A DNA stretch of 64,000 bases, taken from IMG/VR virus record IMGVR_UViG_3300019360_000001; one strand, 5' to 3'. Under the pieces are notes generated by a model. It had not been told where the DNA came from and did not search any database. It worked only from the letters and a program-made list of their open reading frames with translations. Made by a program: the position numbers and the translations under genes. Below are positions 605 through 36,092 of this stretch, piece by piece; positions within the stretch are counted from its first letter, which is position 1, and each line of letters begins with the position of its first letter. Origin of the DNA: a virus.

Positions 605-1741
605 TTATAACAAATTAACAAGTTTTGAGTCATTATTATCTTTATTTATATCTTTACTAGTTAGTTTTACGGCATATTTATTGTTACCTAAGTAACAAAT
701 TATTTTATTTAATACCATTTTGTCTAAAGTTTTACGAAGATGGCCGAAATTTGGCATTTGCCCAGTTTTTTCACAAGTATTAGCCAATTCTTTAAAAGTC
801 ATTTCACTTTTAGATAGGGTATTATATATAATTTGCTCAAAAGAAGACATTTGCATTACATTAATATTATTAAATACTATTAAATCATCAAACATTTCAT
901 TTATTAAGGTTTGCGCACCTTTATCCGTATTTAAATTTTCTACGCCAAAAAACCTTTTAACGAACAAAAATATATCATGTGCCAACCATGCGTTCCTAAA
1001 CTGAGAACTTTCTTTATCTATTATATGTTCTGATTTTATTTCCCATTTGGATTTTAATAGAAGTATTTCATCTGGGCTTAAACTACTATAATTTTCCTTG
1101 CATAAACTTTCTTTAATTATTTGCCAGTTACATTTAGCCGATGAAGGCTCTAATATTTGTCCTATTAAGTCTTCCTTATCGCTACTATTTTTTGCTTTAA
1201 CAACAACAAATCTATCAAGCACAGCGCATATATGCTCTAATTGATTTGGTTTATTTGGGATATTGATTCCATTAGTTGCCGCCAGAACTAGGCCATTAAA
1301 TTGAACTGGTTCTATATTTCTATGTTTTGGCTTTATTATTTCGCCATTACCTATTTGTTTAAGTACATGTATATGCTGTTTAGTTTCAAGAGAAAATTCA
1401 TCAATAAAAATGATTGAGTTATTATAACATTCGAGAGTTTCGTATATACCGATTCCAGTAGAAGCTCCTGCCGAGGATATCCATCTAGCTACTTTTTGCC
1501 CATATTTATTCTCACTGCCTAGACCCAATCCTTCATAAATTGATTTTAACAATTGGGTTTTACCTGATCCTGCACGCCCTAATAATAGCACATGTCGGTT
1601 TCCATCGTGAAACACTCTTCCGATGCGGTTAAATAAGCCAGCCTTATGCTCCATGCGGGCTTTAATCGCCATAATCACCGCAAGCGGCAGACTTTTTTGG
1701 TCGCAAATTTTATTTATTTCGCCAATTAGATTAGACAGCAT
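605..1741 (-). CDS. P-loop AAA+ ATPase with C-terminal winged-helix-like tail
   Basis: Walker A GRAGSGKT, Walker B IIFIDE, AATN sensor, LDRF arginine finger. Confidence 0.75.
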   Translation of the reverse strand: MLSNLIGEINKICDQKSLPLAVIMAIKARMEHKAGLFNRIGRVFHDGNRHVLLLGRAGSGKTQLLKSIYEGLGLGSENKYGQKVARWISSAGASTGIGIYETLECYNNSIIFIDEFSLETKQHIHVLKQIGNGEIIKPKHRNIEPVQFNGLVLAATNGINIPNKPNQLEHICAVLDRFVVVKAKNSSDKEDLIGQILEPSSAKCNWQIIKESLCKENYSSLSPDEILLLKSKWEIKSEHIIDKESSQFRNAWLAHDIFLFVKRFFGVENLNTDKGAQTLINEMFDDLIVFNNINVMQMSSFEQIIYNTLSKSEMTFKELANTCEKTGQMPNFGHLRKTLDKMVLNKIICYLGNNKYAVKLTSKDINKDNNDSKLVNLL

Positions 1742-1979
1742 AATATATACCGCTCATTTTATTAATATAATAATATATGGGCAAAAATTTACGATAACAT
1801 TTCGCACAAAGAAAACAATAAGAAACATCATTTTTACAGTTTATACAAGTTCCATATGTCCATCGCCCAAACATCGCAATAGCTATATGTTGTAAACAAT
1901 CAATACATTTACAACAATACTTGCTATCGGTGTAAATATCTTCTCTAAAAATATCTCTGCAACCAGCACAAGTATTCAT
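1731..1979 (-). CDS. small Cys-rich protein, GIYY-tag family (ends SGIYYAV)
   Basis: Several CxxC pairs; C-terminal tag; paralog of 26120..26326. Confidence 0.8.
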   Translation of the reverse strand: MNTCAGCRDIFREDIYTDSKYCCKCIDCLQHIAIAMFGRWTYGTCINCKNDVSYCFLCAKCYRKFLPIYYYINKMSGIYYAV

Positions 1980-2227
1980 AATATATAGTATATACCTTTA
2001 AATTTACAACCATAATGTGTGATAGGCAAATTTTTACCATAACAAGAATTACATAAAATAGATTCATCCATTAGATCGTTGCAATTAAAACAACGATTCT
2101 CTCCCACCTTTAAATTAAACTTTATCAAATGAAGTTTACTTCGCAATAGTAAATTCCAACATTCATCACAATAGTTATCATTGTTAACTGTAATGTTGTG
2201 CCCACAAGAACAATATTTTTTATCCAC
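1976..2227 (-). CDS. small Cys-rich protein, GIYY-tag family (ends KGIYYIL)
   Basis: CxC/CxxC pairs; tag; paralog of 26323..26559. Confidence 0.8.
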   Translation of the reverse strand: MDKKYCSCGHNITVNNDNYCDECWNLLLRSKLHLIKFNLKVGENRCFNCNDLMDESILCNSCYGKNLPITHYGCKFKGIYYIL

Positions 2228-2675
2228 GAAGTTTTTTCATAGCCTTTTTAATATCTTTATCTACTTTCCTCATAGGAATATTGAAGAACTTTTCGCCCTC
2301 AACATATTTATTGTCCAAAATTATAGTAGGACATTCTAATACAACAAAAGACCATACGCAAAGATACCTTAAACCATCTTCTGAAAAAAGCATAAAAAGT
2401 GTAGGAAGATCTAATTGCATGTATTTACATTTGCGGTCTAGTATGCGCAAAGTGTCATATGCAAAATCTTCATCTGAATGTATGCTCTTTTTTACTTCAG
2501 TTTCTACATAAAACACAACATCTTTTTTATCTGATATTATTAAATCAACGCCCATTTTATTGGGGTTAACTTCTACATTAAATCCAGCATCAGACAAAAC
2601 TTTTTCGGCATATTTTTTTGCCTTAGAGTCATATTTTTTGTACAAACCTTTATCAAAAGGCTTTCTATTACACAT
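2220..2675 (-). CDS. PD-(D/E)xK nuclease-fold protein
   Basis: VDLII...VETEVKK resembles the D...ExK catalytic pattern. Confidence 0.5.
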   Translation of the reverse strand: MCNRKPFDKGLYKKYDSKAKKYAEKVLSDAGFNVEVNPNKMGVDLIISDKKDVVFYVETEVKKSIHSDEDFAYDTLRILDRKCKYMQLDLPTLFMLFSEDGLRYLCVWSFVVLECPTIILDNKYVEGEKFFNIPMRKVDKDIKKAMKKLRG

Positions 2676-3385
2676 TTTAATCCTGTGAACTTGGAGATCT
2701 CTCAGCCAGATCTTTTGCCAACTTTGCCTTAAAACCTTCTGTATAATAAGATTTATGGATTTTAACTTTCGTACTAGAATGTATATAAACAGCTACTACA
2801 AAAGATATACATACAACAATTGCTACAACTCCAAATATAAGATAATCACTATTAAGCATATTAATCTATCCTAACTACGTTTTATTAAAATGCAACATAT
2901 CAGTTTGCATTATAAATTATACCATCGCCAATTTGATACCAAAATCCTCTAGGACCTCTTTTTACAGGAATTTCCCGTCCAGACAAACGAGCAATTCCAG
3001 GAGTTTTTATCTTTGCAGAAACTCCATTATCTAAACGATAATATTCAATTAGCCTTTGTGTAGCTATCCTAATATTTTTATTCTTATGAACAATTCCTTT
3101 AAAATCAACCAAAGATGCATTTTTAAATCGCATAGTTATTCTTCCTTTAAAAAATCTATTTCGTTAAAACAACCAAAACAAATATTTTGTTCCAAATCAT
3201 CAATTTCAAACCATTCTCCACAAGAAGAACATTTGTCTAATGACGGAACTTTTTCATCTTTTTCTGCCTCCTTTTCTATTTTCGTGCCTAATTTTATGTC
3301 TTCTACTTTTGGCATTCTGTATGGCCTTGTTCTCTTGCCACTTGCATCATCTCTATGTTTTCTTAATGACACTATTATTAAATCC

Positions 3386-3637
3386 TTAAATATCACCATT
3401 TTTTAGAATGGCTAAATCTTCCCTGGGATCAAGATATCTTCGTCTAAATTCATCTGCGGCATGTGCAGCAGCATAAACACAATTATGCAGTTCTGTATAT
3501 TTTTGCTCTCGGTTTGACATATATATTTTCATTAATAGAAATATACAATACTCAAGATCGCCTTTAGACGCAATCTCTGTTAATTGTGACATGGCTTGAT
3601 TATATTTCGCCCTGTCTTGTTGTGTTATATATGGCAT
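3386..3637 (-). CDS. conserved small phage hypothetical protein (MPYI...GDLEY...EFRRRYLDPRED)
   Basis: Pattern recurrent in large phages; start moved to MPYITQ. Confidence 0.55.
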   Translation of the reverse strand: MPYITQQDRAKYNQAMSQLTEIASKGDLEYCIFLLMKIYMSNREQKYTELHNCVYAAAHAADEFRRRYLDPREDLAILKNGDI

Positions 3638-4042
3638 TACTACTCCTGATATTCTATTTTTTGGCAAACGATATTACGCTTTTTTAACTCCTTGATAGCC
3701 CTGGACAAAGAAATCTTACAGCCAATAGATTTATTAAACTGATCTTTAATAGAACAAAAGGAAAAACCTTCTGTGATAAGTTCTTTTTTATCATTTACAA
3801 TTCTACATTTAGTTAAGGCAATAGCATCAACAACAAAAAGTCTTGGTATTACTAATCTATTAATTACAAAATAACTATTTGGATGCCTTAAATAGTCCTT
3901 AACTTGACCAGACTCATAGGCTTTAATTTTATGCTCTGACAAAATATTATAAAAATCATCATGTATATCTTCTCTAAAGTGAGAAAATAAAGCCCTAAAC
4001 TTTTCTCCTGTTTCCGTCACAATAAAAGTCCTCATTAAAACT

Positions 4043-4357
4043 TTACCTCCTGTAATAAATTCCTTTGTACCTATAACTTGCATTTCTTGCCAATATTTTA
4101 ACAAAATTATCTTCTGGCAAGTCTTTTGTTCTATTTTCTATTTCTTCTTTTATATAACCATAAATAAAATGGTATTTATCAATATAAATATGAAAATGTA
4201 AGTGATAAAAAGGACCCCTATGTATTTTATCTCTTGTGTTTAAGAGATGTGAAAGTTTCATATCAATAAGAAGAATTTTTTTGCCATCTTTTGTTATCCA
4301 GAATCTTTCATTAAGGGCCGATTGTTTTAGTTCTGTTAGATATAGATGTCGTGTCAT
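4043..4357 (-). CDS. hypothetical protein, GIYY-tag family (ends KGIYYRR)
   Basis: Non-Cys-rich body with the C-terminal tag. Confidence 0.75.
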   Translation of the reverse strand: MTRHLYLTELKQSALNERFWITKDGKKILLIDMKLSHLLNTRDKIHRGPFYHLHFHIYIDKYHFIYGYIKEEIENRTKDLPEDNFVKILARNASYRYKGIYYRR

Positions 4358-4358
4358 T

Positions 4359-4925
4359 TTAAAACCTATATTCTATTCCCAGTGACACAACATCGGTATT
4401 TATACCACGATTTGGTCTTGGACTACCAAATATAGAACTTCCATTTGAAAAATGCCAAACTTCATATTGCGCAAAAATAGATGTGTTTTCACTTGTTTTT
4501 AGTCCAATTCCAGGCCCTGCGCCTAAAACAAATCCCCAGTTTGTTGCTTGTTCATTAGGCTTATGATCAAAATAATGAAATCCTGCTTTTAGCGAAAAAT
4601 ACAGTTCAAAACTTTTTATTGGATATATAATTCTTGGTTTTAGGTCCAGTCCAGTTCCTATACAATCTTGTCCATTTATAGTTTGTGCTCCGCTTATTCC
4701 CAAACCAACAGCAGTTTCTATATTTTTAACTTTAAAAACTTTTGTCTCGATATAACTTGATTCATGAACTATATCTACTGGATTGCCTTTGCCGTTTCTT
4801 ATAATAGTCTTAGAAATAAAAATAGGTTTTCCAATTCCTACTTCTGTGCGACTATAGTTTTTAACTAGAAAATCTTTGTGACATCCAGATAAAAAAATAA
4901 GAAGATATATAAATTTAACTTTCAT
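4359..4925 (-). CDS. PagL-like (lipid A 3-O-deacylase family) outer-membrane beta-barrel with lipobox
   Basis: Signal peptide MKVKFIYLLIFLSG-C; amphipathic strands; WHFSNG...PNRGIN motif; C-terminal beta-signal LGIEYRF. Confidence 0.65.
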   Translation of the reverse strand: MKVKFIYLLIFLSGCHKDFLVKNYSRTEVGIGKPIFISKTIIRNGKGNPVDIVHESSYIETKVFKVKNIETAVGLGISGAQTINGQDCIGTGLDLKPRIIYPIKSFELYFSLKAGFHYFDHKPNEQATNWGFVLGAGPGIGLKTSENTSIFAQYEVWHFSNGSSIFGSPRPNRGINTDVVSLGIEYRF

Positions 4926-5194
4926 TTTTAATACCACCATTTTGGACTGTTTTCTTTCTGTTAACATAAATATCTACATTTCTATCGTTTAAATCTTTAA
5001 ACCAAGACTCAATAGAATCAAATTTCTCTGTCTTTAATGCTTTTATGTGTTTTGCCATTTCAACTGACTTATCATTAAATAATGAAAATATTGAAGGCGA
5101 AACATATGCAATTCCTAATTTGGCCACAATAAATATATATTTTGTATTATTAAGCAAATCTAAAGCTTTTACAGGATATTGTTTACTTCCCTCT

Positions 5195-5506: not shown

Positions 5507-5560
5507 AAAATCCTTAAATTTTTTACATATTTCTGAAAATTTCCAAAGGTTAAACAAGTG

Positions 5561-5910: not shown

Positions 5911-6168
5911 CTACAGTCTAAAATATAGGTTTTTTAACTTGTTTGGCTTATAATATTTACTACATTCAATACATAGATAGTCTGTACGTTCCCCTCCGTA
6001 GTATGAATGGGTGTCGTTATCACATTTTTGATTAGCACACTTGTAATGTTTTTTTGAATTTTCAACCTTATCCTTATAATTTTGTCTGATTAAAATATAA
6101 CATTCATAACAATATTTGTAATCATTTCTATTCAAAAAATTACCACAAAGACATTTTCTATCTGGCAT
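5911..6168 (-). CDS. small Cys-rich protein, GIYY-tag family (ends KNLYFRL)
   Basis: Start MPDRKC embedded in the TATTATG of the upstream tag. Confidence 0.75.
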   Translation of the reverse strand: MPDRKCLCGNFLNRNDYKYCYECYILIRQNYKDKVENSKKHYKCANQKCDNDTHSYYGGERTDYLCIECSKYYKPNKLKNLYFRL

Positions 6169-6391
6169 AATAAATACCACTTGTTGTGTCACGACCCATT
6201 ATTATCAAAGATCTATTATTAATCCATCGTAACAAAGAAGGCATATTATATACATAACGTCCATTGATGTATATTTCTTCTTTATATATTTTAGTTATTT
6301 CTCCTGTATATAGAAAAGATCTATGTGTTTTTATGTTTAATTTTATTATATCACCAATTTGTATATCATCAGCACTATAAATTTTTGCCAT
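6158..6391 (-). CDS. small SH3-like beta protein, GIYY-tag family (ends SGIYYAR)
   Basis: IQIGDII...GEITKI pattern plus tag. Confidence 0.75.
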   Translation of the reverse strand: MAKIYSADDIQIGDIIKLNIKTHRSFLYTGEITKIYKEEIYINGRYVYNMPSLLRWINNRSLIIMGRDTTSGIYYAR

Positions 6392-6395
6392 TAAA

Positions 6396-6638
6396 TTAAA
6401 GCCTGTAATAAATATCTTTTATTTGTTTTTTTATTATATTTTCTATTTCTTTAACAGTTGATTTTTTGTCCATACATAATAAAAGACTGTTTAGTGATTT
6501 ATGCCCACAAACCAAACATAATTTTTTAGAAAAATCGTAATTAATTAACGAAGCAAGGTTATATAAATCTATAAAATAATAATGACAATATGTGCCGTGG
6601 TGCCATTTAGTTTCTTTGACACAATTACATTTACTCAT
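6396..6638 (-). CDS. small Cys-rich protein, GIYY-tag family (ends KDIYYRL)
   Basis: CxC/CxxC plus tag. Confidence 0.75.
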   Translation of the reverse strand: MSKCNCVKETKWHHGTYCHYYFIDLYNLASLINYDFSKKLCLVCGHKSLNSLLLCMDKKSTVKEIENIIKKQIKDIYYRL

Positions 6639-6886
6639 TTAAAGAAATAAATACCTGAAACTTCTTTAATAATTGATTCTTTTATTTTTACTAAAGAAGG
6701 AGCTGTCTCAAAACAAGCGTGACAAATTAATCTAAAATCTTGTTTTCTACAGAAGATACAATTTTTACGTACTCCCATCCAGCCATGATCTGCATATAGC
6801 AAAGGATATATTTCTTTCCAACAGTCTTCGCAATAATAACTTGTTTTGTTTTTATTTTTATTACACGAACATATATTTTTATTCAT
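6635..6886 (-). CDS. small Cys-rich protein, GIYY-tag family (ends SGIYFFK)
   Basis: CxC plus three CxxC plus tag. Confidence 0.78.
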   Translation of the reverse strand: MNKNICSCNKNKNKTSYYCEDCWKEIYPLLYADHGWMGVRKNCIFCRKQDFRLICHACFETAPSLVKIKESIIKEVSGIYFFK

Positions 6887-7107
6887 AGAAGATAATAAAG
6901 GTCAACGAGCCTGTACTTATTAGTTAATTTTTTAGCTGGAATTTTTAAAGCATAACATTTGTCGCACAGTACAGCCTTAACAACAATTGAAGTTCTACAA
7001 TTTATACATATTCTCTGTAATGTATGTTCGGCATGTTTTTCTATCATCTTCCAGCAATCTACACAATAGACACAACCACGTTTTTCACATTCTTCACATG
7101 TATTCAT
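6883..7107 (-). CDS. small Cys-rich protein, GIYY-tag family (ends VDLYYLL)
   Basis: Four CxxC plus tag. Confidence 0.78.
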   Translation of the reverse strand: MNTCEECEKRGCVYCVDCWKMIEKHAEHTLQRICINCRTSIVVKAVLCDKCYALKIPAKKLTNKYRLVDLYYLL

Positions 7108-7319
7108 GGTCTGACTAATTGTCTCCTCTTGCCTTTTTGGTCTTCTAGTAGTATTTTATTACCATTCTGCTCTTCTTTATAAAGGAACAATTCTCGTTCT
7201 AATAAACGTCGGATAGTTGTGGTTACGGTAGAGCCATACTTTTTCGAGATGTCTTCTATTTGGTCGATTATCCATTCGGGAATTCTGACGGATATTGTTA
7301 CGATTTTTTCTTTTGTCAT
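7104..7319 (-). CDS. ribbon-helix-helix (CopG-like) DNA-binding protein
   Basis: VTISVRIPE...IEDISKKYGSTVTTTIRRLLE is a typical RHH pattern. Confidence 0.7.
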   Translation of the reverse strand: MTKEKIVTISVRIPEWIIDQIEDISKKYGSTVTTTIRRLLERELFLYKEEQNGNKILLEDQKGKRRQLVRP

Positions 7320-7335
7320 AAAATTGATCTTTAAT

Positions 7336-7602
7336 TTATAGCCTGAAATATAATCCGTTGTATTGATTGAATATTATAAGTTTCATATTTCTTATTGTTA
7401 ATTTTCTATTATAACACTTTTTACAAAAATAAACATCGACATATGATTTTAAAAACACATGTTCAATCTCAACACGACATAAAATACATGTTTTGTAATC
7501 AATAAATTCCAGGTTTTTATCAATAAAATCTAAAAGTTCATCTATGCAAACGTTGCAATAAATATTTTCGATAGCTATATCTTGGCAAAAACATTTGCTC
7601 AT
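7336..7602 (-). CDS. small Cys-rich protein, GIYY-tag family (ends NGLYFRL)
   Basis: CxC plus three CxxC plus tag. Confidence 0.78.
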   Translation of the reverse strand: MSKCFCQDIAIENIYCNVCIDELLDFIDKNLEFIDYKTCILCRVEIEHVFLKSYVDVYFCKKCYNRKLTIRNMKLIIFNQYNGLYFRL

Positions 7603-7862
7603 AATAGATAATAAATGTCATTTAACTTTTTTGTTATTTTTGATATAATTTCTTCACTCGTCATTTTTTGAGCAATACATTTTTCGCATAATACTAAGTT
7701 GTCAATTGATTTATATTTTTTGTCGCCACAAACACAACATCCGTTGCTAATTCCCTCAAATGAATAACAAGCTGATTGTATTTCTGTAACGCATATTTTA
7801 CATAAACCCAATCCGTCAATAATTGAACTTCTTTCGCATGGACATGGAAAATCAGATAACAT
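7599..7862 (-). CDS. small Cys-rich protein, GIYY-tag family (ends NDIYYLL)
   Basis: CxC plus three CxxC plus tag; ATG inside the upstream tag. Confidence 0.78.
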   Translation of the reverse strand: MLSDFPCPCERSSIIDGLGLCKICVTEIQSACYSFEGISNGCCVCGDKKYKSIDNLVLCEKCIAQKMTSEEIISKITKKLNDIYYLL

Positions 7863-8105
7863 AATAAATTCCATGCATTTTTAAACTATAAGATTCTAAA
7901 ATTTCATTTGTAGAAAGATTTTTTAGCATACATTTTGCACAAAATATTCACAATATTTCAAATGATCATCTAAAGAAATTTTACAAACTAAGCATTTATT
8001 TTTAATATTACTTTTTAAAATAAAATTGTCTAGAATTGACATACATTTTTTACAATAAATATATTTAAATCTATTGGTATTTACTACGCAAGTACAAAAA
8101 CTCAT
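7852..8105 (-). pseudogene. frameshifted Cys-rich GIYY-tag family gene
   Basis: MSFCTC... frame stops at 7923, but a shifted frame continues CAKCMLKNLSTNEILESYSLKMHGIYYVI* to 7852. Confidence 0.7.
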
Positions 8106-8182
8106 AATAAATAGTAAATACATTGTTCATGATAATAACTTGAACATTCTTTTTTACAAATAAAGCACATAGTATTTTTCAT
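8102..8182 (-). CDS. 26-aa mini-protein MKNTMCFICKKECSSYYHEQCIYYLL, tag family
   Basis: ATGA overlaps at both ends; ends IYYLL; below the ORF-track cutoff. Confidence 0.6.
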   Translation of the reverse strand: MKNTMCFICKKECSSYYHEQCIYYLL

Positions 8183-8400
8183 AAGATGTAATATACTCCC
8201 TGTGTCTTATTTCTGGCATTTTCTAGTAATTTTGCGGTTTTAATCTCTGATGAATATTGCCAAAAATTATCACAACATGTAATGCACATTTTCTGTATTT
8301 CATTGTTTAATACAAAACTGCAATATTTTATGACGTTTGTATAACAAAAAAAACATTTTCCTTCATCGCTAATATTATGACCAGTATGTCTATTTAGCAT
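8179..8400 (-). CDS. small Cys-rich protein, GIYY-tag family (ends QGVYYIL)
   Basis: CxxC pairs plus tag. Confidence 0.78.
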   Translation of the reverse strand: MLNRHTGHNISDEGKCFFCYTNVIKYCSFVLNNEIQKMCITCCDNFWQYSSEIKTAKLLENARNKTQGVYYIL

Positions 8401-8647
8401 AATATAACCCGGACATAAAAGTATTTTTTCTTTTTATGATATCTTCAATTGTCCAAGATAGTTTAATACATTTATCTATACATTTTTCACACATATAGTT
8501 ATAAAATTGATTGGCTTCGTGAAGACATAGTGAACATATTGGATCCTTTGGATCTAAAATACTTGTTAGATGTTTCCAACAACCTGTACAAAAAGGATAA
8601 TCCCATGTATAGGGAATGTTAATTTTACAATTGTTGCATTTATTCAT
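8390..8647 (-). CDS. small Cys-rich protein, GIYY-tag family (ends SGLYYAK)
   Basis: Four CxxC plus tag; ATGA-coupled to the VWA gene. Confidence 0.78.
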   Translation of the reverse strand: MNKCNNCKINIPYTWDYPFCTGCWKHLTSILDPKDPICSLCLHEANQFYNYMCEKCIDKCIKLSWTIEDIIKRKNTFMSGLYYAK

Positions 8648-24274: not shown

Positions 24275-24473
24275 TTTTCCATTTTTCTATTAATATTTCA
24301 CTAGGAATTAATTCTTTAGAAGCACAAGCAGTACAAAACACGAGATAATAAAGTGGAATATTTTTTTCACATATTAAACACACTTTGATAAGATTTTTTT
24401 GTTTTAAAGCTAAAAGTGCATCAGAACAATTGTAGCAATAACGCCCAGTTTTATAGCAATAACATTTATTCAT
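24243..24473 (-). CDS. Cys-rich protein, GIYY-tag family (ends KDVYYKL)
   Basis: CxC plus three CxxC plus tag. Confidence 0.78.
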   Translation of the reverse strand: MNKCYCYKTGRYCYNCSDALLALKQKNLIKVCLICEKNIPLYYLVFCTACASKELIPSEILIEKWKNARKDVYYKL

Positions 24474-24483: not shown

Positions 24484-24560
24484 TGGTAGCTCCGGTCAGA
24501 TTTGAACTGACACTAACATCCTTTTAAGAGATGTGCCTCTGCCAATTGGGCTACGGAGCC
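24484..24560 (-). tRNA. tRNA-Leu(UAA), short variable loop, encoded CCA
   Basis: GGCTCCG acceptor; CATCT-CTTAAAA-GGATG anticodon arm; GTCAG-TTCAAAT-CTGAC T arm; A73-CCA. Confidence 0.9.
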
Positions 24561-26119: not shown

Positions 26120-26326
26120 TTATAACCAGTGATAAAGTCCATTCATTTTTTTTGAATAATAACTGACAGGTAAAAATTTTCTAATGCATATATCACATAA
26201 AAAATAATTACAGTTTATTTTACAATCTATACATTTCCAATCATTGGAATGCCAAAATATATCCCATAACGTACTGGAGCATTTGTAACAATGAACAAAA
26301 TCTTCACACTTATTACAATTATTCAT
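26120..26326 (-). CDS. Cys-rich protein, GIYY-tag family (ends NGLYHWL)
   Basis: Paralog of 1731..1979 (RKFLP..YY..KM.G.Y). Confidence 0.78.
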   Translation of the reverse strand: MNNCNKCEDFVHCYKCSSTLWDIFWHSNDWKCIDCKINCNYFLCDICIRKFLPVSYYSKKMNGLYHWL

Positions 26327-26559
26327 ATTATATAGTAAATCCCTTTTAATTTGCCACTATAATATGTTAGTGGCAAGTTTTTCTTGTAACAAGACGAACA
26401 TAAAATATGATCGCCATACATGTTTTTAATGCCACAATTTAAGCAAATTGTATCTTCATCAAAAAACCTCGCTTCATGAATTGTAACTAGATGGTTCCAA
26501 CAATAATCGCAATAGTTTGCATTGTTATTTAAAATATTGTTCCCACAAGTGCATTTCAT
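26323..26559 (-). CDS. Cys-rich protein, GIYY-tag family (ends KGIYYII)
   Basis: Paralog of 1976..2227. Confidence 0.8.
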   Translation of the reverse strand: MKCTCGNNILNNNANYCDYCWNHLVTIHEARFFDEDTICLNCGIKNMYGDHILCSSCYKKNLPLTYYSGKLKGIYYII

Positions 26560-28018: not shown

Positions 28019-28369
28019 TTACAATGTGTAATAAATATCGTCCATTTGTGAAATTCTTTCGGCAGCTCTTTTAAGAATGCAAACTCTATCAGAAGCAGAT
28101 GATCCTTTGGGCCAATTATGTACATTACCAAGTTGAAATTGGCCATATTTAATAGGACATGTAATTTCTGCCCATCCATCCCAAATATTTAATGGAATAT
28201 TATTAAAATTTTGGTCAATCTTATACTTATCCCTTATTAATTTTCTAGGCATTTTAATTATTCTTGCAACTTTAGCTAATCCTCCCATTTGCTCAATGAA
28301 AGAATCATCCTTTGCATTAAAATTTTCGTTCATATAGAATTTTATTGAGGATTTCATGAACTTGCTCAA
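28019..28369 (-). CDS. hypothetical protein, GIYY-tag family (ends DDIYYTL)
   Basis: IPLNIWD...VCILKRAA body plus tag. Confidence 0.7.
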   Translation of the reverse strand: MSKFMKSSIKFYMNENFNAKDDSFIEQMGGLAKVARIIKMPRKLIRDKYKIDQNFNNIPLNIWDGWAEITCPIKYGQFQLGNVHNWPKGSSASDRVCILKRAAERISQMDDIYYTL

Positions 28370-28592: not shown

Positions 28593-29063
28593 TCAGTCAA
28601 AAAGATCAAAAAAACAAGTGTAAATGGAATCTAAAACCCAAAGATAATCCTTATGATGAATTCCTGTAAGTCTTTCCCTAAAAACAACATAATGTGCAAG
28701 TTCATGAAGTAAAACTCTAAGGTTAATATGATTGCACTGAATAACAATATTCTTACCAGCGCAATAACCTGAAACTAATCCACCAACATTAATATACTGA
28801 TAAAGATGTGGATTTCTCTTGACTCCCAAAGATGAACAAATACGATTGCAAATTAGCTTAGCTTCTGTCAAATCCTTGGGATATATATGTTTGGAAAGTC
28901 TATTAGAATGCTTTGCTTCAATCTTTCTACATTCCCCATATTCTTTTTCGTTTTCATCCTTGTACTTTTTCAAGGCAACATAATCCCAAATAGGAGGAAG
29001 CTTTACAATAGGTTTAGGAATTACTTTGAATTCAAAATTCCTAGTTTTCTTGTAAGTTTTCAT
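28593..29063 (-). CDS. HExxH zincin-like (SprT-like) protein
   Basis: LLHELAHY...HH; start MKTYKK downstream of promoter. Confidence 0.6.
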   Translation of the reverse strand: MKTYKKTRNFEFKVIPKPIVKLPPIWDYVALKKYKDENEKEYGECRKIEAKHSNRLSKHIYPKDLTEAKLICNRICSSLGVKRNPHLYQYINVGGLVSGYCAGKNIVIQCNHINLRVLLHELAHYVVFRERLTGIHHKDYLWVLDSIYTCFFDLFD

Positions 29064-29104
29064 CGGATACAATTTCCGGCCCAACTCAAATTCTGATTCC
29101 GGAC

Positions 29105-29133
29105 AGTATACCATGCGCCTTCGATTCTGTCAA
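29105..29133 (-). promoter_or_regulatory. sigma-70 promoter TTGACA-17-TATACT
   Basis: TTGACAgaatcgaaggcgcatggTATACT, near-copy of the 13014..13042 promoter. Confidence 0.82.
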
Positions 29134-30031
29134 GTTTACACAAGTGCTTAAGGCGCCTAGACTTGCGATAATAAAGTTAAACCCAATAAATAAATATGTT
29201 TTTGCGTTTTCTCCTAGCAGAATCACCATTCCAGAAGTTAATAAGTTCATAAATTTTCTTGGCATCGGCAAGATAAACCGTTTTCTTGCCTCTATGTTGA
29301 GTATTCCCATAATATTTCCAGTTATAAACTACTGGAACAAAGTGTTTTGGCCTAATAAGTTCATCTTCAAAGTAATATTCAAACGGTGCATACATAATTT
29401 AAGTTTCACTCCATAACAATTTGGGCCAAATTTCCGTGTTTATCCTTCTTCATAAGAAGGATCTGACCAAATATAATTTTCCATCGGAGTTTCGATGAAA
29501 AACTCATTGCCAAAACTCCAAGTAAATTCACCAAACAACTCAAATACTTCGTTCATTTCCAATTTTCTTTATTAAATTCCCTCGGCACGTTTTTTTCGGC
29601 CGACTCTAATGAATTTTTGCCCCTATATTCCATTTCTTTTTGTTTTATAAGTCTAGCAATTGTTTGACAGGCCTAACATTTGATTTGTTTGCTAAACCCA
29701 ACGTTTGTTAGTTCGACCTAGCAATTGTTTGTTGTGACTAGTGGCTAAAAATTAGCTATTTTTCACTGTCATTTTGGCATATTCCATTCAAAGCGAATGC
29801 TGCCCATTAGGGCGCCTTTGGTCTAGTTTGCTCACGATAGACCATTCTGCCGTTCAGCTCGCAGCTCGGAGACAGATAGGCGCCTTCCTTTGGCATTCTC
29901 TTGCGAGTTCACATGGCGAAATGGCCATGGGCAGTAGGCATGGCCATGGTGTACGTAGTAGGGGGAAGCAATGTCAAAATTTGATTTTTCCATTTATTGG
30001 AAACCTGTACAAAAATTTGACATCGAATGGC

Positions 30032-30075
30032 AAAAAAAATAGAAGAGAATTCCAGGAATACCGAATTCTCCTCTA
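30032..30075 (-). terminator. intrinsic terminator
   Basis: TAGAGGAGAATTC...GAATTCTCTTCTA hairpin followed by a T run on the - strand. Confidence 0.65.
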
Positions 30076-30361
30076 ACCATCGAAAAAATAAGGCCTAATA
30101 GCCTAGGCCGTTTGTGTTGGGTTAAAAATGCGCCCGAAAATCTTTATGGATTTCCGGTTCTTGTTGGCACAAGCATGCGATTTGTTAGGGCTTGCCTTGC
30201 CCCTTTTTGTCCGCAACGTAGGCGCAAATCGTGAAAAGGGCTGAAGATACAAAAACTTATGGGTTAATATGTATTGGCCTCTTCAGTATCCGCTTCACGG
30301 ATAAACAAAGGGACGGTATACCGTCCCAGTGTTTCGGCCTGTCTTCTGTAATTTTATAGTC

Positions 30362-30661
30362 TTACGAAATTCGGGCCAACATCTCCTCAAGTTGCTTGAC
30401 CTTGGCGATTTGCTTCTCCAGTCGGGCCCGGAGCTGTTCGGGGTTTTCGGATGCCGTTCCTTCGCCTTCGTATTCTCCGCTGGCGTCCAATTCGGCCTTT
30501 CGAGTCTGCAGATATTCGAGCCGCTCTTGCCATTCGAGTAGCATGCGCTCGTTGCTGGCGATCCGGTCTTGCGCTTCCCGAATGTGCGCAATCAATGCAC
30601 TCCGGGAAAATCGCCGACCTCGCCTAGCGATGGTTTCGATTTTTTCCGTGACTACTGACAT
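30362..30661 (-). CDS. coiled-coil hypothetical protein (GC-richer island)
   Basis: AAAGGA SD before MSVVTEK; heptad pattern. Confidence 0.7.
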   Translation of the reverse strand: MSVVTEKIETIARRGRRFSRSALIAHIREAQDRIASNERMLLEWQERLEYLQTRKAELDASGEYEGEGTASENPEQLRARLEKQIAKVKQLEEMLARIS

Positions 30662-30719
30662 GTGGATCCTTTCTGGGCTTTTCGCCCTAAGTTGTTTATT
30701 TTCCTTCAAAAAGGGTTAA

Positions 30720-30734
30720 GCATGTGCAATGCCA
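30720..30734 (-). promoter_or_regulatory. sigma-54-like -24/-12 promoter
   Basis: TGGCATTGCACATGC (GG-N10-GC); palindrome at 30751-30775 upstream. Confidence 0.6.
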
Positions 30735-31594
30735 ATACCAAAATTTTCGTTAAGTGTAAGCCCTATAAGGACTTAGAACGTTATAGAGTTCTCATGAGAT
30801 GTCCAAATGCCTACTTTTTGTCATGGTTGAGTACACCTAGCAAATGCTAGACCTAGCAAACTTCTTCATGTACATATTTGGGACTATACATAAAAGGTTT
30901 CAACTTAAAAGCTTATGTAAACCTATTTAAGGTGATTCCTAAATAGTTCATCCATCAATACATATAACAAACCAATATAAATGGTAATAGAAGCACAAGA
31001 TACAAGATGATGGATGTGATTTATGGTAAGATGTTGTAAATAAAGGACTTATGACTTTCACCCTTTTCGCCATTTTTTTGTCATAAACCCTTACCACATA
31101 AGCACTTATGACGTTTTGATTTAACCTTTTGGGCTGGTTAATTCACGTTCAAAACTAGGCAAAAAAGTAATGGAATGGAGTATTTTCGTTACGATCTATT
31201 ATATTGTGGGTATATTTTACATTAAATAGTAAAAAAGATGTGCAATGATGGGTGAATCCGCATCGATTTTCGAGAACTGGCCTAAAACTTGCAAGGATGA
31301 AAAATCGTGCCAGACCATTTTTGCTTCGTAAACCCTTACTACATCAAGACTTACAGCTTAACATTTCCGCAATCTGCCGTTATTAACTTTTGGAAAAAGC
31401 ATGGGCATTCTCCCGCCTCGAAGGCCCATCAAAGGCTCAATTTAATTTATCATGGCCGAAAAATATGTCAAGTCAAAAAAATTTGTAAAAACTTTGGGCA
31501 AATAATAGAGTAACATTGTAAAATGTTACATTTTGCAATGTTAAATCTACAAAAAGTTTAGGGCCGGCGATAAGCCGGCCCTTTGTCGAACATG

Positions 31595-31816
31595 CTAACC
31601 CAGATTGATTCTGCCCACAATTTCCTTGGCAAGAATCCCATAGAACCTCTCCGAGGTTTTCCATTCTGTGCAGGGCACATGAGGAAACATCTTTTTAATC
31701 GCTTCAAGCTCATGCCCATCGGCTTGAACTTCGAAAACTGTTTGCACTGGATGGTTTGCCTTTTCGCCGACATGCCATTCCGTGACATCTCCTTTGTTTG
31801 AGACAATATACATCAT
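31595..31816 (-). CDS. hypothetical protein (GC-richer island)
   Basis: AAAGG SD; shares a 26-nt leader with the 30362..30661 gene. Confidence 0.65.
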   Translation of the reverse strand: MMYIVSNKGDVTEWHVGEKANHPVQTVFEVQADGHELEAIKKMFPHVPCTEWKTSERFYGILAKEIVGRINLG

Positions 31817-32533
31817 TTTGGACCTTTCTGGGCTTTTCGCCCTAAGTTATGGTTGTGGCATTATTTAAAGCAACTAGAGGGTTAAACTTTTGCCGTAAGT
31901 CTAATCTCCGCATATCCTTCGGAAGCCTTTTCTTTGAAGGCTTTTAAGGCTTCCTTGAAACTTTCAAAATCTTCGACTGTTTCAAAGTCTTTTTGCTCAA
32001 ACTTACGGAAGGAAACCGAAAAACGAACAAAATCGTTGATGTCAAACATTTTTCCCCTTTCCTATAATACCGTTTGTCTTCAAGGTATCGACCCTGTCCA
32101 AGGTATCCTTGACTACGTTGTCGATTGAATTGGTCTTCTTTAGAAGAGTATACATGTCCAAATAAAGTTCAAGAATTTCGGTTTTTGTCAATTTTTTGAA
32201 CTGTCGCATAAATAAATCATACTGTGTCTCAAACATTATAGGACTCCTCTACTAGAAGACCTTTCGAGCCTACCCTGCCCGGACGGGGGGCGAAGATTCG
32301 CCACGGTGACAGGATCAACTGGGTTAACTTTCGCAATTCTTCCAGGTCTCCTTGAATCGACAGCTGGCCATTGATTTCCAGAGTGTACATTATTTCCTAA
32401 GTCCTTTCCGTACCTTAATTTGGAGTGCCTGAAACCGAACCTTCAGCTCTGCTATTCTCTTTTTGCTCTCCGAAACCTTAGCTATAAGCTCTTCGAAGTG
32501 CTTTTCCATTTTTCTCCCTTCGTTATTGATTAA

Positions 32534-32548
32534 GCATGAATCGTGCCG
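32534..32548 (-). promoter_or_regulatory. sigma-54-like -24/-12 promoter
   Basis: CGGCACGATTCATGC upstream of MEKHFEEL ORF. Confidence 0.6.
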
Positions 32549-32664
32549 TTCTCCTAAGTTCTTATTTTTCGTTGCCCCTAACCGTCTAACCAAGACTTAT
32601 GGCTCGAAAAACTGTCAGATGTCCTAACATCTTTCATGTATGAAAAACATACAGTTGATTGCCT

Positions 32665-32693
32665 AAAAAAAGGGAACCGTATTAGGTTCCCTT
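32665..32693 (-). terminator. intrinsic terminator
   Basis: AGGGAACC-TAATAC-GGTTCCCT hairpin plus T run after 32707 ORF. Confidence 0.75.
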
Positions 32694-32706
32694 GAAGTCA
32701 GATTTC

Positions 32707-33228
32707 TTACCTTCCGAATCTGGAAATCCGAGGAAAACAAGCTTCAACTTGTTTCGGCGAAAGGGGATACGTATATTTCCTGTCCTTTTTCGACTTTAGC
32801 CAACTTAAGACTTGTTCGCACAAGTTCTTGCGGAATTCGGAACGGAATTTTCGGACCTTCATCAGCTGGAAAACCGCTTCTTTTCTATCAAAGTCGAGAG
32901 TTCCCAACAGTTTGACGATTCTTCCAGCCTGAAATTTGCCGTGGTGAAGGAAGTCCACAATTCGCTTGCGGAAAATCTCGCTTTGAATCTTCTTAGCTTG
33001 TTTGTAGGCATGCCATTGAAACGCTTTGTAGGCCTCGGAGGTCTTGTCTATTTTGGGGGGTGAAACGTAATCAAAAGCATCTGTGCCTACTGGAATTGTC
33101 TCTGGCCACTGTAAGTTGAAATTCCATACGGTGATGGAATCTTCATAGATCGCCCAGTCGTTGTTCCATTTACGACAGAAGGCAACGATTCTGCCTTCAT
33201 TTGCCGTAAGTATGTCTTGCGCTTTCAT
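32707..33228 (-). CDS. hypothetical protein (GC-richer island)
   Basis: AAGGA SD; FRSEFRKNLCEQVLSWL...YPLSPKQ tail recurrent in large phages. Confidence 0.7.
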   Translation of the reverse strand: MKAQDILTANEGRIVAFCRKWNNDWAIYEDSITVWNFNLQWPETIPVGTDAFDYVSPPKIDKTSEAYKAFQWHAYKQAKKIQSEIFRKRIVDFLHHGKFQAGRIVKLLGTLDFDRKEAVFQLMKVRKFRSEFRKNLCEQVLSWLKSKKDRKYTYPLSPKQVEACFPRISRFGR

Positions 33229-33489
33229 TTGTGTTCCTTTCATTCGCAAAGACTTGTTTCAGTTGTTCTTACGTCAACAAAAAGGTTTCCTTTTCCGTAA
33301 ACCTTTTCCAGGATTTGGACTGCTTCAAGTGCTTCTCTCATTGTTCCGTAAGACAAGCAAAGGAATACCGATTCCACGTAACCTGTCTCATCTTCTTCGT
33401 TTAGGTAAACGTTATATCCTTCCATGGGTTTCCTTTATAGCCTAATGGGAATAAGGGGGAATGTTTACCATTCCCCCATTCAACCTTTG

Positions 33490-33645
33490 CTAGATCGACC
33501 AGTAAGGGGACCGCAAGGTGAGCGCACGAATACCGATGTAACCGGTTTCGATCGCCCACATCTCCCGGATGATGTTGTTGGGCGACTTGCTGACAGAAGC
33601 CCAGTATTTCGTCAACATCTTCAGGCGCTTGACGGCATTGACCAT
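33490..33645 (-). CDS. 51-aa hypothetical protein MVNAVKRLKM...
   Basis: Strong SD AAGGAG; first ORF after the 33752 promoter; not in ORF track. Confidence 0.6.
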   Translation of the reverse strand: MVNAVKRLKMLTKYWASVSKSPNNIIREMWAIETGYIGIRALTLRSPYWSI

Positions 33646-33751
33646 TTGCACTCCTTTATCCGAGAATCGCCTTAAGGTAAGTCAGAAGGTAAATCACCAT
33701 TACGATTGCTGGCGTTACCATTAGGATTTTGATTCTCATAATGATGGAATA

Positions 33752-33766
33752 GCATCTTCTATGCCA
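33752..33766 (-). promoter_or_regulatory. sigma-54-like -24/-12 promoter
   Basis: TGGCATAGAAGATGC; palindrome at 33772-33796. Confidence 0.65.
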
Positions 33767-34076
33767 AAAACTAAATCCTTATATTATAAAGACTTAGGTT
33801 TTAGAATAGGAAGGAAATGACAGTTTTAGGCGTCAAATTTTGTCTATTTTGCCATTTAATACCACATGGAAACGGTTTGAATGTCTTCCCGAAATCATTT
33901 TCTCTCTATATAAGTCGCCCTTCCACCAAACAAAGCATAAAGCGAGACAAACAAAAGGGTTAATGTTAAAGTCGGAACCGTAAAGGTAGTCTCGCCATTT
34001 GACACATCGTAAAAGGTCGGGAAAATGTGTCGAATCACGGGTTATATCCTTTTTTCTTCTTTCAATGGGATCATAC

Positions 34077-34091
34077 GCATCTTCTATGCCA
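34077..34091 (-). promoter_or_regulatory. sigma-54-like -24/-12 promoter
   Basis: TGGCATAGAAGATGC, identical to 33752 copy; palindrome at 34097-34121. Confidence 0.6.
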
Positions 34092-34312
34092 TCCTTTCTA
34101 CGCTTGAATCTAAAGGGTTTACGTTACTAGCCCTTCCCAAAACCAAGCGAAACGTCAAATGTCTGTACATCCCAGGTTTTCATAAGTCCTTATGGGATAA
34201 CGTTTCACATGGCAAAAATGGGATTTCGCCTATAGCAAAACACAAAATTCCATATAGGCAAAAATTACTTACGGATTTATTATACTTAGGACACATTCAA
34301 TTAGGCCTACTT

Positions 34313-34353
34313 GCATCTTTTATGCCACTTTATTACATGCAATATTTGTTCCA
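34313..34353 (-). promoter_or_regulatory. two tandem sigma-54-like -24/-12 motifs
   Basis: TGGCATAAAAGATGC (34313-34327) and TGGAACAAATATTGC (34339-34353). Confidence 0.55.
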
Positions 34354-34546
34354 TCCCATCATTTCCCTAACCTATTACCACATCAAACAATAAACTTACC
34401 ATAAAGAACCGTACCAAAGACACAAGCTTGTCTGAGATGCTAAGTTGTTATATTGAAAGGACTTAGGGGAGGGTTTTTGGAATTCGTGATTTGATTGATG
34501 CGAAAAACGCCGGGGGGACTCACACAAAACATACACCCCCTATCTT

Positions 34547-34640
34547 AGTATCGTACTAACATACCAGTATCATACTAACATGCTCATACTAATATGTCTT
34601 TATATTTTAGTATTAATTATTAGGGGAGTATCGTACTAAC
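34547..34640. repeat. direct repeats AGTATCRTACTAAC at strand-switch point
   Basis: Copies at 34547, 34566, 34627 and partial at about 34584. Confidence 0.8.
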
Positions 34641-34681
34641 TTTGCTGTAATAAGCATGTCCCTCTTATGGATAAGTAGAGT

Positions 34682-34789
34682 ATGTACAAAATAAATATAC
34701 CAATTGAGTTTATTAATTTACGCTTAAAAAGTGGCCTTATGAAAATAATAGACAAAAATTCGATGAAGGGCATTTATTATGTTTTATGA
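34682..34789 (+). CDS. 35-aa mini-protein, GIYY-tag family (ends KGIYYVL)
   Basis: MYKINIPIEFINLRLKSGLMKIIDKNSMKGIYYVL*; below ORF-track cutoff. Confidence 0.65.
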   Translation: MYKINIPIEFINLRLKSGLMKIIDKNSMKGIYYVL

Positions 34790-35039
34790 TCCTATTCTAT
34801 CCAAAGTAGATAAAGAATTAAAGAATAAATTGCCAAAATATTTTTATATTTACAATTCGCATTTTAAGTCCAATAAAGATTTAAGTATGTCTTATTGCTT
34901 GGATAATGAATATTTTATAATAACAGTAAATTTAGAGCAATTACCTGAAATTACTCATCATAATAGAGTAAGTTTTATCACAACCAAGATAATTGAACAA
35001 ATAGCGACTCGTAAAAAAGGGCTTTATTATATTTTATAA
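34779..35039 (+). CDS. hypothetical protein, GIYY-tag family (ends KGLYYIL)
   Basis: Tag; non-Cys body. Confidence 0.78.
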   Translation: MFYDPILSKVDKELKNKLPKYFYIYNSHFKSNKDLSMSYCLDNEYFIITVNLEQLPEITHHNRVSFITTKIIEQIATRKKGLYYIL

Positions 35040-35042
35040 GGT

Positions 35043-35315
35043 ATGTATATGCCATATGTTTTTATAGCAAGTATTCAGAAAAGAATAAGGCGAATATTAC
35101 CGATGTTTTATATCGAAGATGTACTGCCAGTTGAAAATAAAACAGAGATACATTACGGAATATATATTTTGCCCAATGTTGTGCTTGGTGATAAAATAAA
35201 AATAGATGAAACTCCGTGGCTTGAAAAGCCATACGAACAAATGGAAGATTTTATAGTTAAAGAAATAATGGCAAAAATACAAACAACAAAAAAAGGAATT
35301 TATTATATACTATGA
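35043..35315 (+). CDS. hypothetical protein, GIYY-tag family (ends KGIYYIL)
   Basis: Tag; non-Cys body. Confidence 0.78.
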   Translation: MYMPYVFIASIQKRIRRILPMFYIEDVLPVENKTEIHYGIYILPNVVLGDKIKIDETPWLEKPYEQMEDFIVKEIMAKIQTTKKGIYYIL

Positions 35316-35463
35316 ATAAAAAATGCGAAAAATGCCAAAATAATTTTTCCACTAATTTCCCTAACAAAAGGTTTTGCTGTGCAAGATGTAGGGAGGCGAG
35401 TTCGAGACGCCGCAATTACAGCTACCAAAAGGAGTATATGAGAAAATTTAGGAGCAAAGAAAA

Positions 35464-35784
35464 ATGATGACATCAATATACTGTGATCCAAAGATTATTA
35501 AATTAATACAAGATAGCTTTACTGATGCAGATTTATCAATGATGCAAGTACATTATTCGTACAAAAACACATATTTTACAGGAATGGTATGTATTGGAGA
35601 TATACCATTTTTCTTAGATGTTGAAATAAGAGACATTAATAAAAAAGAAGATATGTACAAAGATTCTGTAATTAAACAAATAGTTAATGAGATAGAAAAT
35701 AAATACAAACAAGTAAAGGGAAAAATTGCTAAAAAGAAAGCCAAAGAATTAGCAAAAACTAACGGTATATATTTTGCTAGATGA
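35464..35784 (+). CDS. hypothetical protein, GIYY-tag family (ends NGIYFAR)
   Basis: Tag; non-Cys body. Confidence 0.78.
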   Translation: MMTSIYCDPKIIKLIQDSFTDADLSMMQVHYSYKNTYFTGMVCIGDIPFFLDVEIRDINKKEDMYKDSVIKQIVNEIENKYKQVKGKIAKKKAKELAKTNGIYFAR

Positions 35785-36092
35785 ATACTTTATATGGTTT
35801 TATTATGAAAGAAATTAATATAAGCACAGAAAAGATAGTCAAATTAATTACCAACTATTTGCCTAAGATTAAAGAAGTATCTATTACATGTGAGGCTGAA
35901 AAAGAAATTCTTATGATATATTGTGAAGCGAAATATGGGGGAATAAATATTCAGACATCTATCTCTTATACAAAATATGACCTTAGATTTTCTAGTTTTG
36001 ATATAAACTCGTTAATCTATGGCGCATTAGTTAGTGGTATATTGTTAAAACTTAAAAACTACGAAATGAAAGGGGTTTATTATGAGCGATAA
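35781..36092 (+). CDS. hypothetical protein, GIYY-tag family (ends KGVYYER)
   Basis: Tag; non-Cys body. Confidence 0.78.
   Translation: MNTLYGFIMKEINISTEKIVKLITNYLPKIKEVSITCEAEKEILMIYCEAKYGGINIQTSISYTKYDLRFSSFDINSLIYGALVSGILLKLKNYEMKGVYYER

Follow-up and report, generated by a model that had tools for sequence, protein, structure and literature searches.

We analysed a stretch of 64,000 nucleotides (hereafter the window) from the IMG/VR virus record IMGVR_UViG_3300019360_000001, which derives from a large uncultured tailed phage of about 30% guanine-cytosine (GC) content and in which 29 small open reading frames (ORFs) end in one shared peptide tag. All 29 (24 on the minus strand and 5 on the plus strand) terminate in [GDNC][ILV]Y[YFH]-x-x-stop, and the aromatic pair stands exactly two residues before the stop in each of them, as an original prediction made from the sequence alone had claimed. 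According to our analysis, the tag is most likely a docking or addressing peptide on small early proteins, since distant relatives of the phage keep a variant of it.

The motif is strongly concentrated at C-termini. In its strict form, [GDN][ILV]Y[YF], it occupies position -6 in 23 of the 112 predicted genes of at least 50 amino acids (aa), where 0.02 would be expected (binomial p about 2e-63), and it occurs at 3 of the 17,180 other positions in these genes, which bears out the terminal placement claimed earlier. A six-frame scan of the 64 kb returned 50 strict matches, 29 of them exactly two residues before a stop; these consist of 27 of the listed tags, an antisense match at 6888 and an out-of-frame match at 8660. 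Over positions -9 to -3 the consensus extends to [KR]-hydrophobic-[KNS]-[GD]-[ILV]-Y-[YF], followed by x-x-COOH, with Lys and Arg enriched at positions -7 to -9 and a strongly hydrophobic and aromatic core. Gln is only occasional (3/29 at -9, 2/29 at -7). The last residue is Leu in 15 tags, Arg in 6, Ile in 3, Lys in 2 and Val, Asp and Ser in one each, and about half to 60% of the tags finish in three non-polar residues (YIL, YAV, YLL; not YRR, YER, YNR, YID or YAK).

Tags are confined to proteins of 25-117 aa, encoded in two divergent blocks that flank a strand switch. The genes point leftward from about 30 kb and, past a GC-richer, gene-poor stretch, rightward from about 34.7 kb, and we read the flanking blocks as early genes, far from the head genes. 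Within them, 24 of the 56 genes of 60-129 aa are tagged (about 40%). The tag is found on none of the 17 genes of at least 130 aa, on none of the 35 genes beyond 36.5 kb and nowhere past 36092 in the window, and the earlier statement that enzymes are untagged likewise holds, as no enzyme in the window carries it. The tagged ORFs, named in the text by the coordinate at which they end, are listed below with their bodies (Zn-ribbon, zinc-ribbon) and terminal residues.

1731-1979, minus strand: 82 aa, double Zn-ribbon family, end GIYYAV (BLAST, alignment)
1976-2227, minus strand: 83 aa, Zn-ribbon family, end GIYYIL (BLAST, alignment)
4043-4357, minus strand: 104 aa, alpha/beta body, no Cys pairs, end GIYYRR; distant orthologs with GGIFF tag
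5911-6192, minus strand: Zn-ribbon family, end NLYFRL (BLAST, alignment)
6158-6391, minus strand: 77 aa, non-Zn body, end GIYYAR (BLAST)
6396-6638, minus strand: 80 aa, Zn-ribbon family, some Cys lost relative to sister strain, end DIYYRL
6635-6886, minus strand: 83 aa, Zn-ribbon family, end GIYFFK (BLAST, alignment)
6883-7107, minus strand: 74 aa, Zn-ribbon family, end DLYYLL (BLAST, alignment)
7336-7602, minus strand: 88 aa, Zn-ribbon family, end GLYFRL (BLAST, alignment)
7599-7874, minus strand: Zn-ribbon family, end DIYYLL; tag codons form one end of a strain indel
7852-7929, minus strand: 25-aa remnant of a frameshifted Zn-ribbon gene (upstream part 7923-8123), end GIYYVI
8102-8182, minus strand: 26-aa mini ORF or remnant, variant tag CIYYLL
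8179-8400, minus strand: 73 aa, Zn-ribbon family, end GVYYIL; tag codons form the other end of the strain indel
8390-8647, minus strand: 85 aa, Zn-ribbon family, end GLYYAK; start overlaps the stop of the zincin-VWA gene
13282-13488, minus strand: 68 aa, non-Zn body, end GIYYNL (BLAST)
13485-13718, minus strand: 77 aa, Zn-ribbon family, end GLYFVR (BLAST, alignment)
15052-15294, minus strand: 80 aa, Zn-ribbon family, end GIYYEI (BLAST, alignment)
18794-19105, minus strand: 103 aa, non-Zn body, end GLYFID (BLAST)
21388-21705, minus strand: 105 aa, non-Zn body, end GIYYNR (sister strains: GIYYCR)
23921-24274, minus strand: 117 aa, Zn-ribbon family, end GLYFIS (BLAST, alignment)
24243-24473, minus strand: 76 aa, Zn-ribbon family, end DVYYKL (BLAST, alignment)
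26120-26326, minus strand: 68 aa, Zn-ribbon family, variant tag GLYHWL (same in a sister strain)
26323-26559, minus strand: 78 aa, Zn-ribbon family, end GIYYII; folded body and disordered tag (AlphaFold2)
28019-28369, minus strand: about 112-116 aa, non-Zn body, end DIYYTL
34682-34789, plus strand: 35-aa mini ORF, end GIYYVL; in strain L076 the frame is open at least 67 codons further upstream
34779-35039, plus strand: 86 aa, non-Zn body, paralog of 35043-35315, end GLYYIL (BLAST)
35043-35315, plus strand: 90 aa, non-Zn body, end GIYYIL (BLAST)
35464-35784, plus strand: 106 aa, non-Zn body, end GIYFAR (BLAST)
35781-36092, plus strand: 103 aa, non-Zn body, end GVYYER (BLAST)

A single double zinc-ribbon family, marked by four Cys pairs, accounts for about 18 of the 29 carriers, which are paralogs of each other (all-against-all BLAST and alignment), so the original description of 29 unrelated proteins was overstated. 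The remaining 11 fall into up to 10 other groups (BLAST): ORFs 35039 and 35315 are mutual paralogs, and nine further carriers have no detectable relatives among the 29. The bodies of the 18 contain four CxxC-type pairs, that is, the two zinc knuckle pairs of a double zinc ribbon, and in their alignment C3, C5, C17, C20, C39, C42, C54 and the Cys three residues past C54 are invariant or nearly so. Their match to DZR_2 is weak and below the Pfam cut-off, and Pfam and PHROGs gave nothing above threshold for ten tagged proteins.

The tag is modular, as had been proposed, sitting on at least two families without detectable relationship: when profiles of the Zn-ribbon and 4043 families are compared with each other, only the 7 tag columns align. 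AlphaFold2 folds the Zn-ribbon carrier at 26323-26559 into zinc knuckles and three helices (mean predicted local distance difference test, pLDDT, 76.6) and the 4043 carrier into a beta-beta-alpha-beta-beta-alpha-alpha body (pLDDT 70-86). On both of these dissimilar bodies (pLDDT about 70-87) the tag is a tail without secondary structure, with pLDDT below 50-55, preceded by a helix (H64-71 and H82-91); the motif usually has an amphipathic helix ahead of it. A fold search of both models against the PDB returned no match at E <= 0.001. The free, terminally anchored C-terminal beta-strand of the original prediction is doubtful: the tail is free and disordered in the two models, as would suit docking, but anchoring through the chain terminus does not extend to relatives, in which the core is followed by 4-10 further residues.

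Selection acts on the peptide rather than on the DNA, since synonymous sites vary, Tyr codons are used as elsewhere in the genome and nothing is conserved past the stop. In a nucleotide alignment around the tagged stops, variation falls on codon third positions and on the first position of the I/L/V codon, and no nucleotides are conserved downstream. The tags use TAT and TAC for Tyr at 40:10 (41:9 expected from genome usage), encode Gly by GGT (6), GGA (8), GGG (7) and GGC (1) with a mild excess of GGG (p 0.01), and end in TAA (12), TGA (13) or TAG (4). These counts agree with the synonymous variation, the use of all three stops and the peptide-level selection claimed at the outset, and they make a DNA-level signal an unlikely cause of the conservation. 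Constraint on the last two residues is loose, and the codons for them often supply the start or the Shine-Dalgarno sequence (e.g. AGGAGG) of the next gene, and 12 of the 29 tags overlap that gene in an NNATGA stop/start. TTA is the most frequent last codon of the tags (9/29), and the window encodes one tRNA-Leu(TAA) (24484-24560, minus strand).

Contigs from related samples, 93-99% identical to the window, reveal purifying selection on the tag core between strains. Among orthologous carriers, 1 of 76 sites changed in the four-residue core (V to I), compared with 55 of 1473 in the bodies and 6 of 38 in the last two residues; the numbers involved are small, with one change tallied in each of two strains. 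The strains also differ by the following segment.

7617-8178, minus strand: 562-bp segment, present in the window and missing in strains L208 and L001, with both breakpoints in tag codons

Within the segment are ORF 7599, the frameshifted 7923/7852 gene and the 26-aa ORF 8102. Its crossover point falls in the tag codons of ORFs 8179 and 7599, and L208 and L001 carry the hybrid tag GIYYLL. Strain L076 has an additional tagged gene where the window differs. The tags are thus sites of cassette gain and loss, and recombination from tag to tag agrees with the tandem arrays of paralogs. ORFs 7852 and 8102, which the original prediction had counted as small tagged proteins, do bear tags but are gene remnants within this strain-specific segment.

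A variant of the tag occurs in a distant lineage of large phages (L212, L213, L217 and L218; 40% GC), which shares 41% identity with the window in a 585-aa zincin-VWA protein. There, three Zn-ribbon proteins, a Cys-free protein of 82 aa and the 4043 ortholog bear LSxGG[IV]F[FY] close to their C-termini. A further 4-10 residues come after the core, often beginning with or containing Glu, and an acidic residue usually falls within 1-4 residues after the aromatic pair; in P0084, too, 4-10 residues follow the core. Between two members of the lineage the core is kept bar one F-to-Y change, and the extension differs by an indel. Orthologs of ORF 4043 in distant relatives were detected at E 2e-4, and then at 1e-40 to 1e-75 with a profile. 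Weaker echoes are seen in L216, where the 4043 ortholog ends in KDLFYE, and in L211, where DGLTYIF, NGLTFMY or NIFY stands close to the C-terminus of three small non-zinc proteins (SH3-like by eye). The G-aliphatic-aromatic-aromatic core is therefore older than the lineage of the window, being present on small proteins of distant relatives; the two-residue register and the expansion to 29 copies are seen only in this lineage. An M10 peptidase gene lies beside the L212-lineage tags but was rejected, as its product carries a lipoprotein-type signal and the window contains no homolog of it.

Beyond these relatives, a Zn-ribbon profile searched against 1.84 billion protein representatives matched small proteins of this phage and its strains only, the long matches being unrelated Cys-rich repeats. 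A DNA probe for K-G-I-Y-Y-I-L-stop, run against viral, metagenome and genome contigs, found multiple tags only on contigs of the same lineage and otherwise single chance occurrences, among the matches listed. We found no such tag described in Pfam, PHROGs, the 1.84 billion protein representatives or the literature covered by full-text searches.

The densest tag array (11 tags, 5911-8647) adjoins a three-gene operon of the same orientation that runs straight into it, the array beginning at the stop codon of the operon.

11676-12767, minus strand: first operon gene, encoding a 363-aa protein without a known family, 23-27% identical in five relatives
10411-11679, minus strand: MoxR-type AAA+ ATPase (AAA_5, bpMoxR), operon member
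8644-10401, minus strand: last operon gene, encoding a 585-aa protein; zincin HExxH motif at residue 78, VWA-like domain whose DxSxS MIDAS motif spans residues 426-430

The 585-aa protein has its HExxH motif intact, its DxSxS MIDAS motif is conserved across 21 homologs, and homologs on large phage contigs are 38-53% identical to it. At least six divergent lineages of large phages (L211, L212, L214, L215, L216 and L217) have kept the operon as a whole (a protein of about 370 aa, MoxR and a protein of about 580 aa). A joint model of the zincin-VWA protein, Mg and a tagged Zn-ribbon protein scored 0.00, which is evidence neither way. The out-of-frame match mentioned above, a perfect RGIYYYL-stop in the -1 frame (8660-8701, minus strand), lies at the 3' end of the zincin-VWA gene with an A-run, GGAAAAC, directly upstream, and is kept in three strains; it is probably a coincidence of codon choice, as the in-frame C-terminus is conserved across the 21 homologs. 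A second small zincin-like gene, encoding a 173-aa HExxH protein (28593-29114, minus strand), lies directly upstream of tagged ORF 28019.

Taken at the protein level, the tag would be a short linear motif on the flexible tail of small, independently folded early-gene products, mostly double zinc-ribbon modules together with several other body types. Its aliphatic-aromatic-aromatic side chains may dock in one hydrophobic pocket or on one edge strand of a single common partner, so that the partner would recruit the variable bodies, or act on them, as one family. The result would be a hub-and-adaptor library, enlarged through tandem duplications and through recombination inside the tag codons. 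That many small early proteins reach a common partner by way of such a flexible docking tail is, in our judgement, about as likely as not; that the tag binds at all, that there is one partner and which partner this would be, we infer.

Several points weigh against this docking model. Our analysis found no binding partner for the tag, and the evidence is computational and comes from an uncultured phage lineage. L211, L214, L215 and L216 lack a clear tag set up to 10 kb from the conserved operon (L214 and L215 show no clear tag at all over that distance), so that the tag is either not universal in the clade or located elsewhere in those genomes. The residues flanking the tag are basic here and often acidic in the L212 lineage, and a single unchanged receptor is therefore not assured. 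Moreover, self-association, membrane binding or proteolysis would be equally plausible uses of a tail that is hydrophobic and aromatic. Since the core is followed by 4-10 residues in distant relatives, an obligatory anchor at the terminal carboxylate cannot be general. A carboxylate after the aromatic pair does recur in both lineages, which makes a readout of the MIDAS type conceivable. In this more specific and doubtful version, to which we give somewhat less weight than to either of the two alternatives taken up next, the tail would be a clade-specific addressing code that recruits a diversifying library of mini-domains to one phage receptor, for example the VWA/MIDAS-zincin protein with MoxR. 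The receptor would read the aromatic pair and the following carboxylate (the chain terminus here, Glu in the relatives), and the library would grow and shrink through tag-codon recombination.

Two other functions of the peptide seem improbable to us, in equal degree. Disordered hydrophobic C-terminal tails are typical AAA+ degrons, as in the ssrA and MuA tags, and early proteins might accordingly be marked for unfolding or cleavage by MoxR and the zincin-VWA protein, or by a host AAA+ protease, for timed removal or activation. The co-oriented array that begins at the operon's stop codon fits this, as do the intact HExxH and conserved MIDAS motifs of the 585-aa protein, whose MIDAS metal could ligate the terminal carboxylate two residues on, or the acidic residue of the L212-lineage tags. 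However, the operon is also conserved in the four relatives without a tag array within 10 kb, the tagged genes are spread over 34 kb on both strands, and only about half to 60% of the tags have a non-polar final triplet. Alternatively, the tails may zip mixed oligomers together through an aromatic strand or, with a basic amphipathic helix, target the proteins to the membrane periphery in the manner of MinD or FtsA. The helix ahead of the tag in both models, the Lys/Arg enrichment at -7 to -9 before a hydrophobic and aromatic core, and the lack of structure of the tail in the modelled monomer speak for these roles, but the acidic contexts of the L212-lineage tags would suit anionic membranes poorly, and the near-invariant Gly and strict order of residues exceed what amphipathicity or stickiness would need.

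Less probable still are the following explanations. The conserved 3' end might mainly be a joint for recombination and translational coupling, at which gene cassettes are duplicated, deleted and swapped and whose peptide would do little, considering the 562-bp strain difference that crosses over inside tag codons and leaves a hybrid tag, the 12 stops in NNATGA overlaps, the two variable codons that often form a Shine-Dalgarno sequence and the tandem paralogs. Yet copies of the tag DNA have low identity at exactly the synonymous sites, nothing is conserved past the stop, tags also end isolated genes before intergenic spacers, and the relative of 40% GC keeps the amino-acid core with other codons and other downstream residues. 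A pure joint is thus insufficient to explain amino-acid conservation across differing codons and GC contents, and we hold this account to be quite unlikely. Still more unlikely is a nascent-peptide signal that acts at termination by ribosome pausing or coupling, as the strictly fixed distance to the stop with variable P-site and -1 residues might suggest. It could be tied to a GGQ gene (21029-21391, minus strand) whose start overlaps the stop of tagged ORF 21388 and whose 120-aa product contains an RF-1/GGQ peptidyl-tRNA hydrolase domain (Pfam E 2e-13) and lacks a basic tail like that of ArfB. Against it, the core is not terminal in relatives, and sister strains L001 and L008 keep their tags while 160 bp of the GGQ gene are missing (window 21144-21303), both of which argue against a signal read at the stop codon; the restriction of tags to small non-enzymatic proteins is a further objection. 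Finally, the tag resembles the N-terminus of GIY-YIG homing endonucleases, and the tail might provide the first beta-strand (K-x-G-I-Y-x-I) of a split nuclease in trans to a catalytic partner, with the Zn-ribbons targeting DNA. This we regard as scarcely credible: no frame of the window encodes a YIG...R...H partner, the tag ends two residues on, whereas the nucleases have YIG about 10 residues after GIY, then Arg, His, Glu and Asn, and an invariant Tyr, the family is not among the 25 Pfam families listed of 58 in the 86 untagged ORFs, and in the L212 lineage Phe replaces the would-be catalytic Tyr.

Returning to docking as the most likely function, shared C-terminal docking motifs are a known kind of device, of which this motif, as far as sequence comparison can tell, would be a distinct member, missing the defining features of clamp-binding motifs, PIP-boxes, PDZ ligands and the T4 targeting peptide. 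The bacterial beta-clamp-binding motif (QL[SD]LF or QLxLxL), the PIP-box (Qxx[ILM]xx[FY][FY]) and the tails of T4 gp43, gp33 and gp55 are likewise disordered aromatic motifs near the C-terminus by which unrelated proteins dock on one hub; the aromatic pair is key, and a variable number of trailing residues is possible in the relatives of the tag. Unlike these, the tag has no conserved Gln, its aliphatic residue adjoins the aromatic pair instead of lying three residues ahead, and it is borne by very small early proteins (zinc ribbons and others) rather than by replication enzymes. We saw no gene for a clamp in the window. With PDZ class II ligands (hydrophobic-x-hydrophobic-COOH), ssrA (LAA-COOH) and MuA the tag shares a fixed register to the free carboxylate (29/29), and 19 of the 29 tags end in Leu, Ile or Val. 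It differs from these in that the last residue is Arg, Lys, Asp or Ser in the other 10 and the last two residues evolve fastest, and it has neither the conserved hydrophobic last residue nor the terminal position in homologs that mark PDZ class II.

The T4 capsid targeting sequence and the cargo-loading peptides of encapsulins resemble the tag in placing one short peptide on several unrelated cargo proteins. Encapsulin cargo peptides are C-terminal, about 10 residues long, follow another consensus and belong to genes beside the shell gene, whereas the tagged genes are far from the head genes. The T4 sequence is N-terminal, cleaved by the prohead protease and found on late internal proteins, whereas the tag is C-terminal and its genes lie outside the virion genes. 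An integrin I-domain (VWA/MIDAS) reads the Gly-aromatic-carboxylate sequence GFOGER of collagen, its MIDAS metal ligating the carboxylate of the ligand, and here a VWA/MIDAS gene lies beside the densest tag array; this likeness is an analogy only, as the MoxR/zincin-VWA operon is also found in relatives without nearby tags. Ribosome arrest peptides share the fixed distance to the stop, but that distance is 4-10 residues in the relatives of the tag.

The window belongs to a phage with sister contigs of 153.9 kb, and the sequence occurs in two DNA sequencing runs, both cave metagenomes, with no RNA run listed. A megablast search with the operon and tblastn searches with the terminase and a BCS1-like ATPase found no near relative among 50,697 phage records; the best terminase matches there (tblastn) are 26-28% identical and come from Bacillus and Clostridium phages. 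Judging from these searches, no cultured phage is close to this one. Recognisable genes include those for the MoxR AAA+ ATPase, the 585-aa zincin-VWA protein, an RNA ligase with an intein, a GP88-family protein, a metallophosphatase, PhoH, the BCS1-like AAA ATPase, ThyA, DHFR, TnpB, an intein-bearing ribonucleotide reductase and the large terminase. The stretch at the strand switch (30000-34600) has 41-42% GC and few genes and is the least conserved region among strains (80-95% identity, with gaps).

Mobile elements are numerous in the genome. The RNA ligase gene (16057-17556, minus strand; PHA02142 OB-fold and RNA_ligase domain) is split by an intein with Hint and intein splicing domains, and its homolog in L211 has 355 aa and no intein insert. 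A TnpB/Cas12f-like OrfB_IS605 gene lies within the phage genome (44811-46100, plus strand), and strain L076 departs from the window sequence from about 44.5 kb. Intein and LAGLIDADG or HNH insertions are present in an 835-aa protein and in the ribonucleotide reductase (46650-49157 and 52989-57953, plus strand). A second repeated C-terminal ending, G-[IV]-[ED]-Y-[RK]-[FS], is found on proteins of 130-200 aa in the window (4359-4967 and 3640-4104, minus strand) and in L211 (14292-14861 and 15548-15946). Orthologs of its carriers in a sister strain and in L214 have weak PagL matches, and the carriers are probably simply homologs of one another.

The functions of small phage early proteins are largely unknown, and about 40% of the early genes of 60-129 aa in this phage share one handle. 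The literature searched yielded no description of a phage whose small early proteins carry a common tail in large proportion. As no partner of the tag was found, the 'addressing system' of the original prediction is still an inference; if the handle does bind one partner, that partner would be a hub through which a large part of the early programme of the phage acts, and the tag would be usable as a portable addressing peptide. The locus also shows a short coding motif serving as a crossover point for the gain and loss of cassettes, which is a concrete mechanism for the fast turnover of accessory genes in phages.

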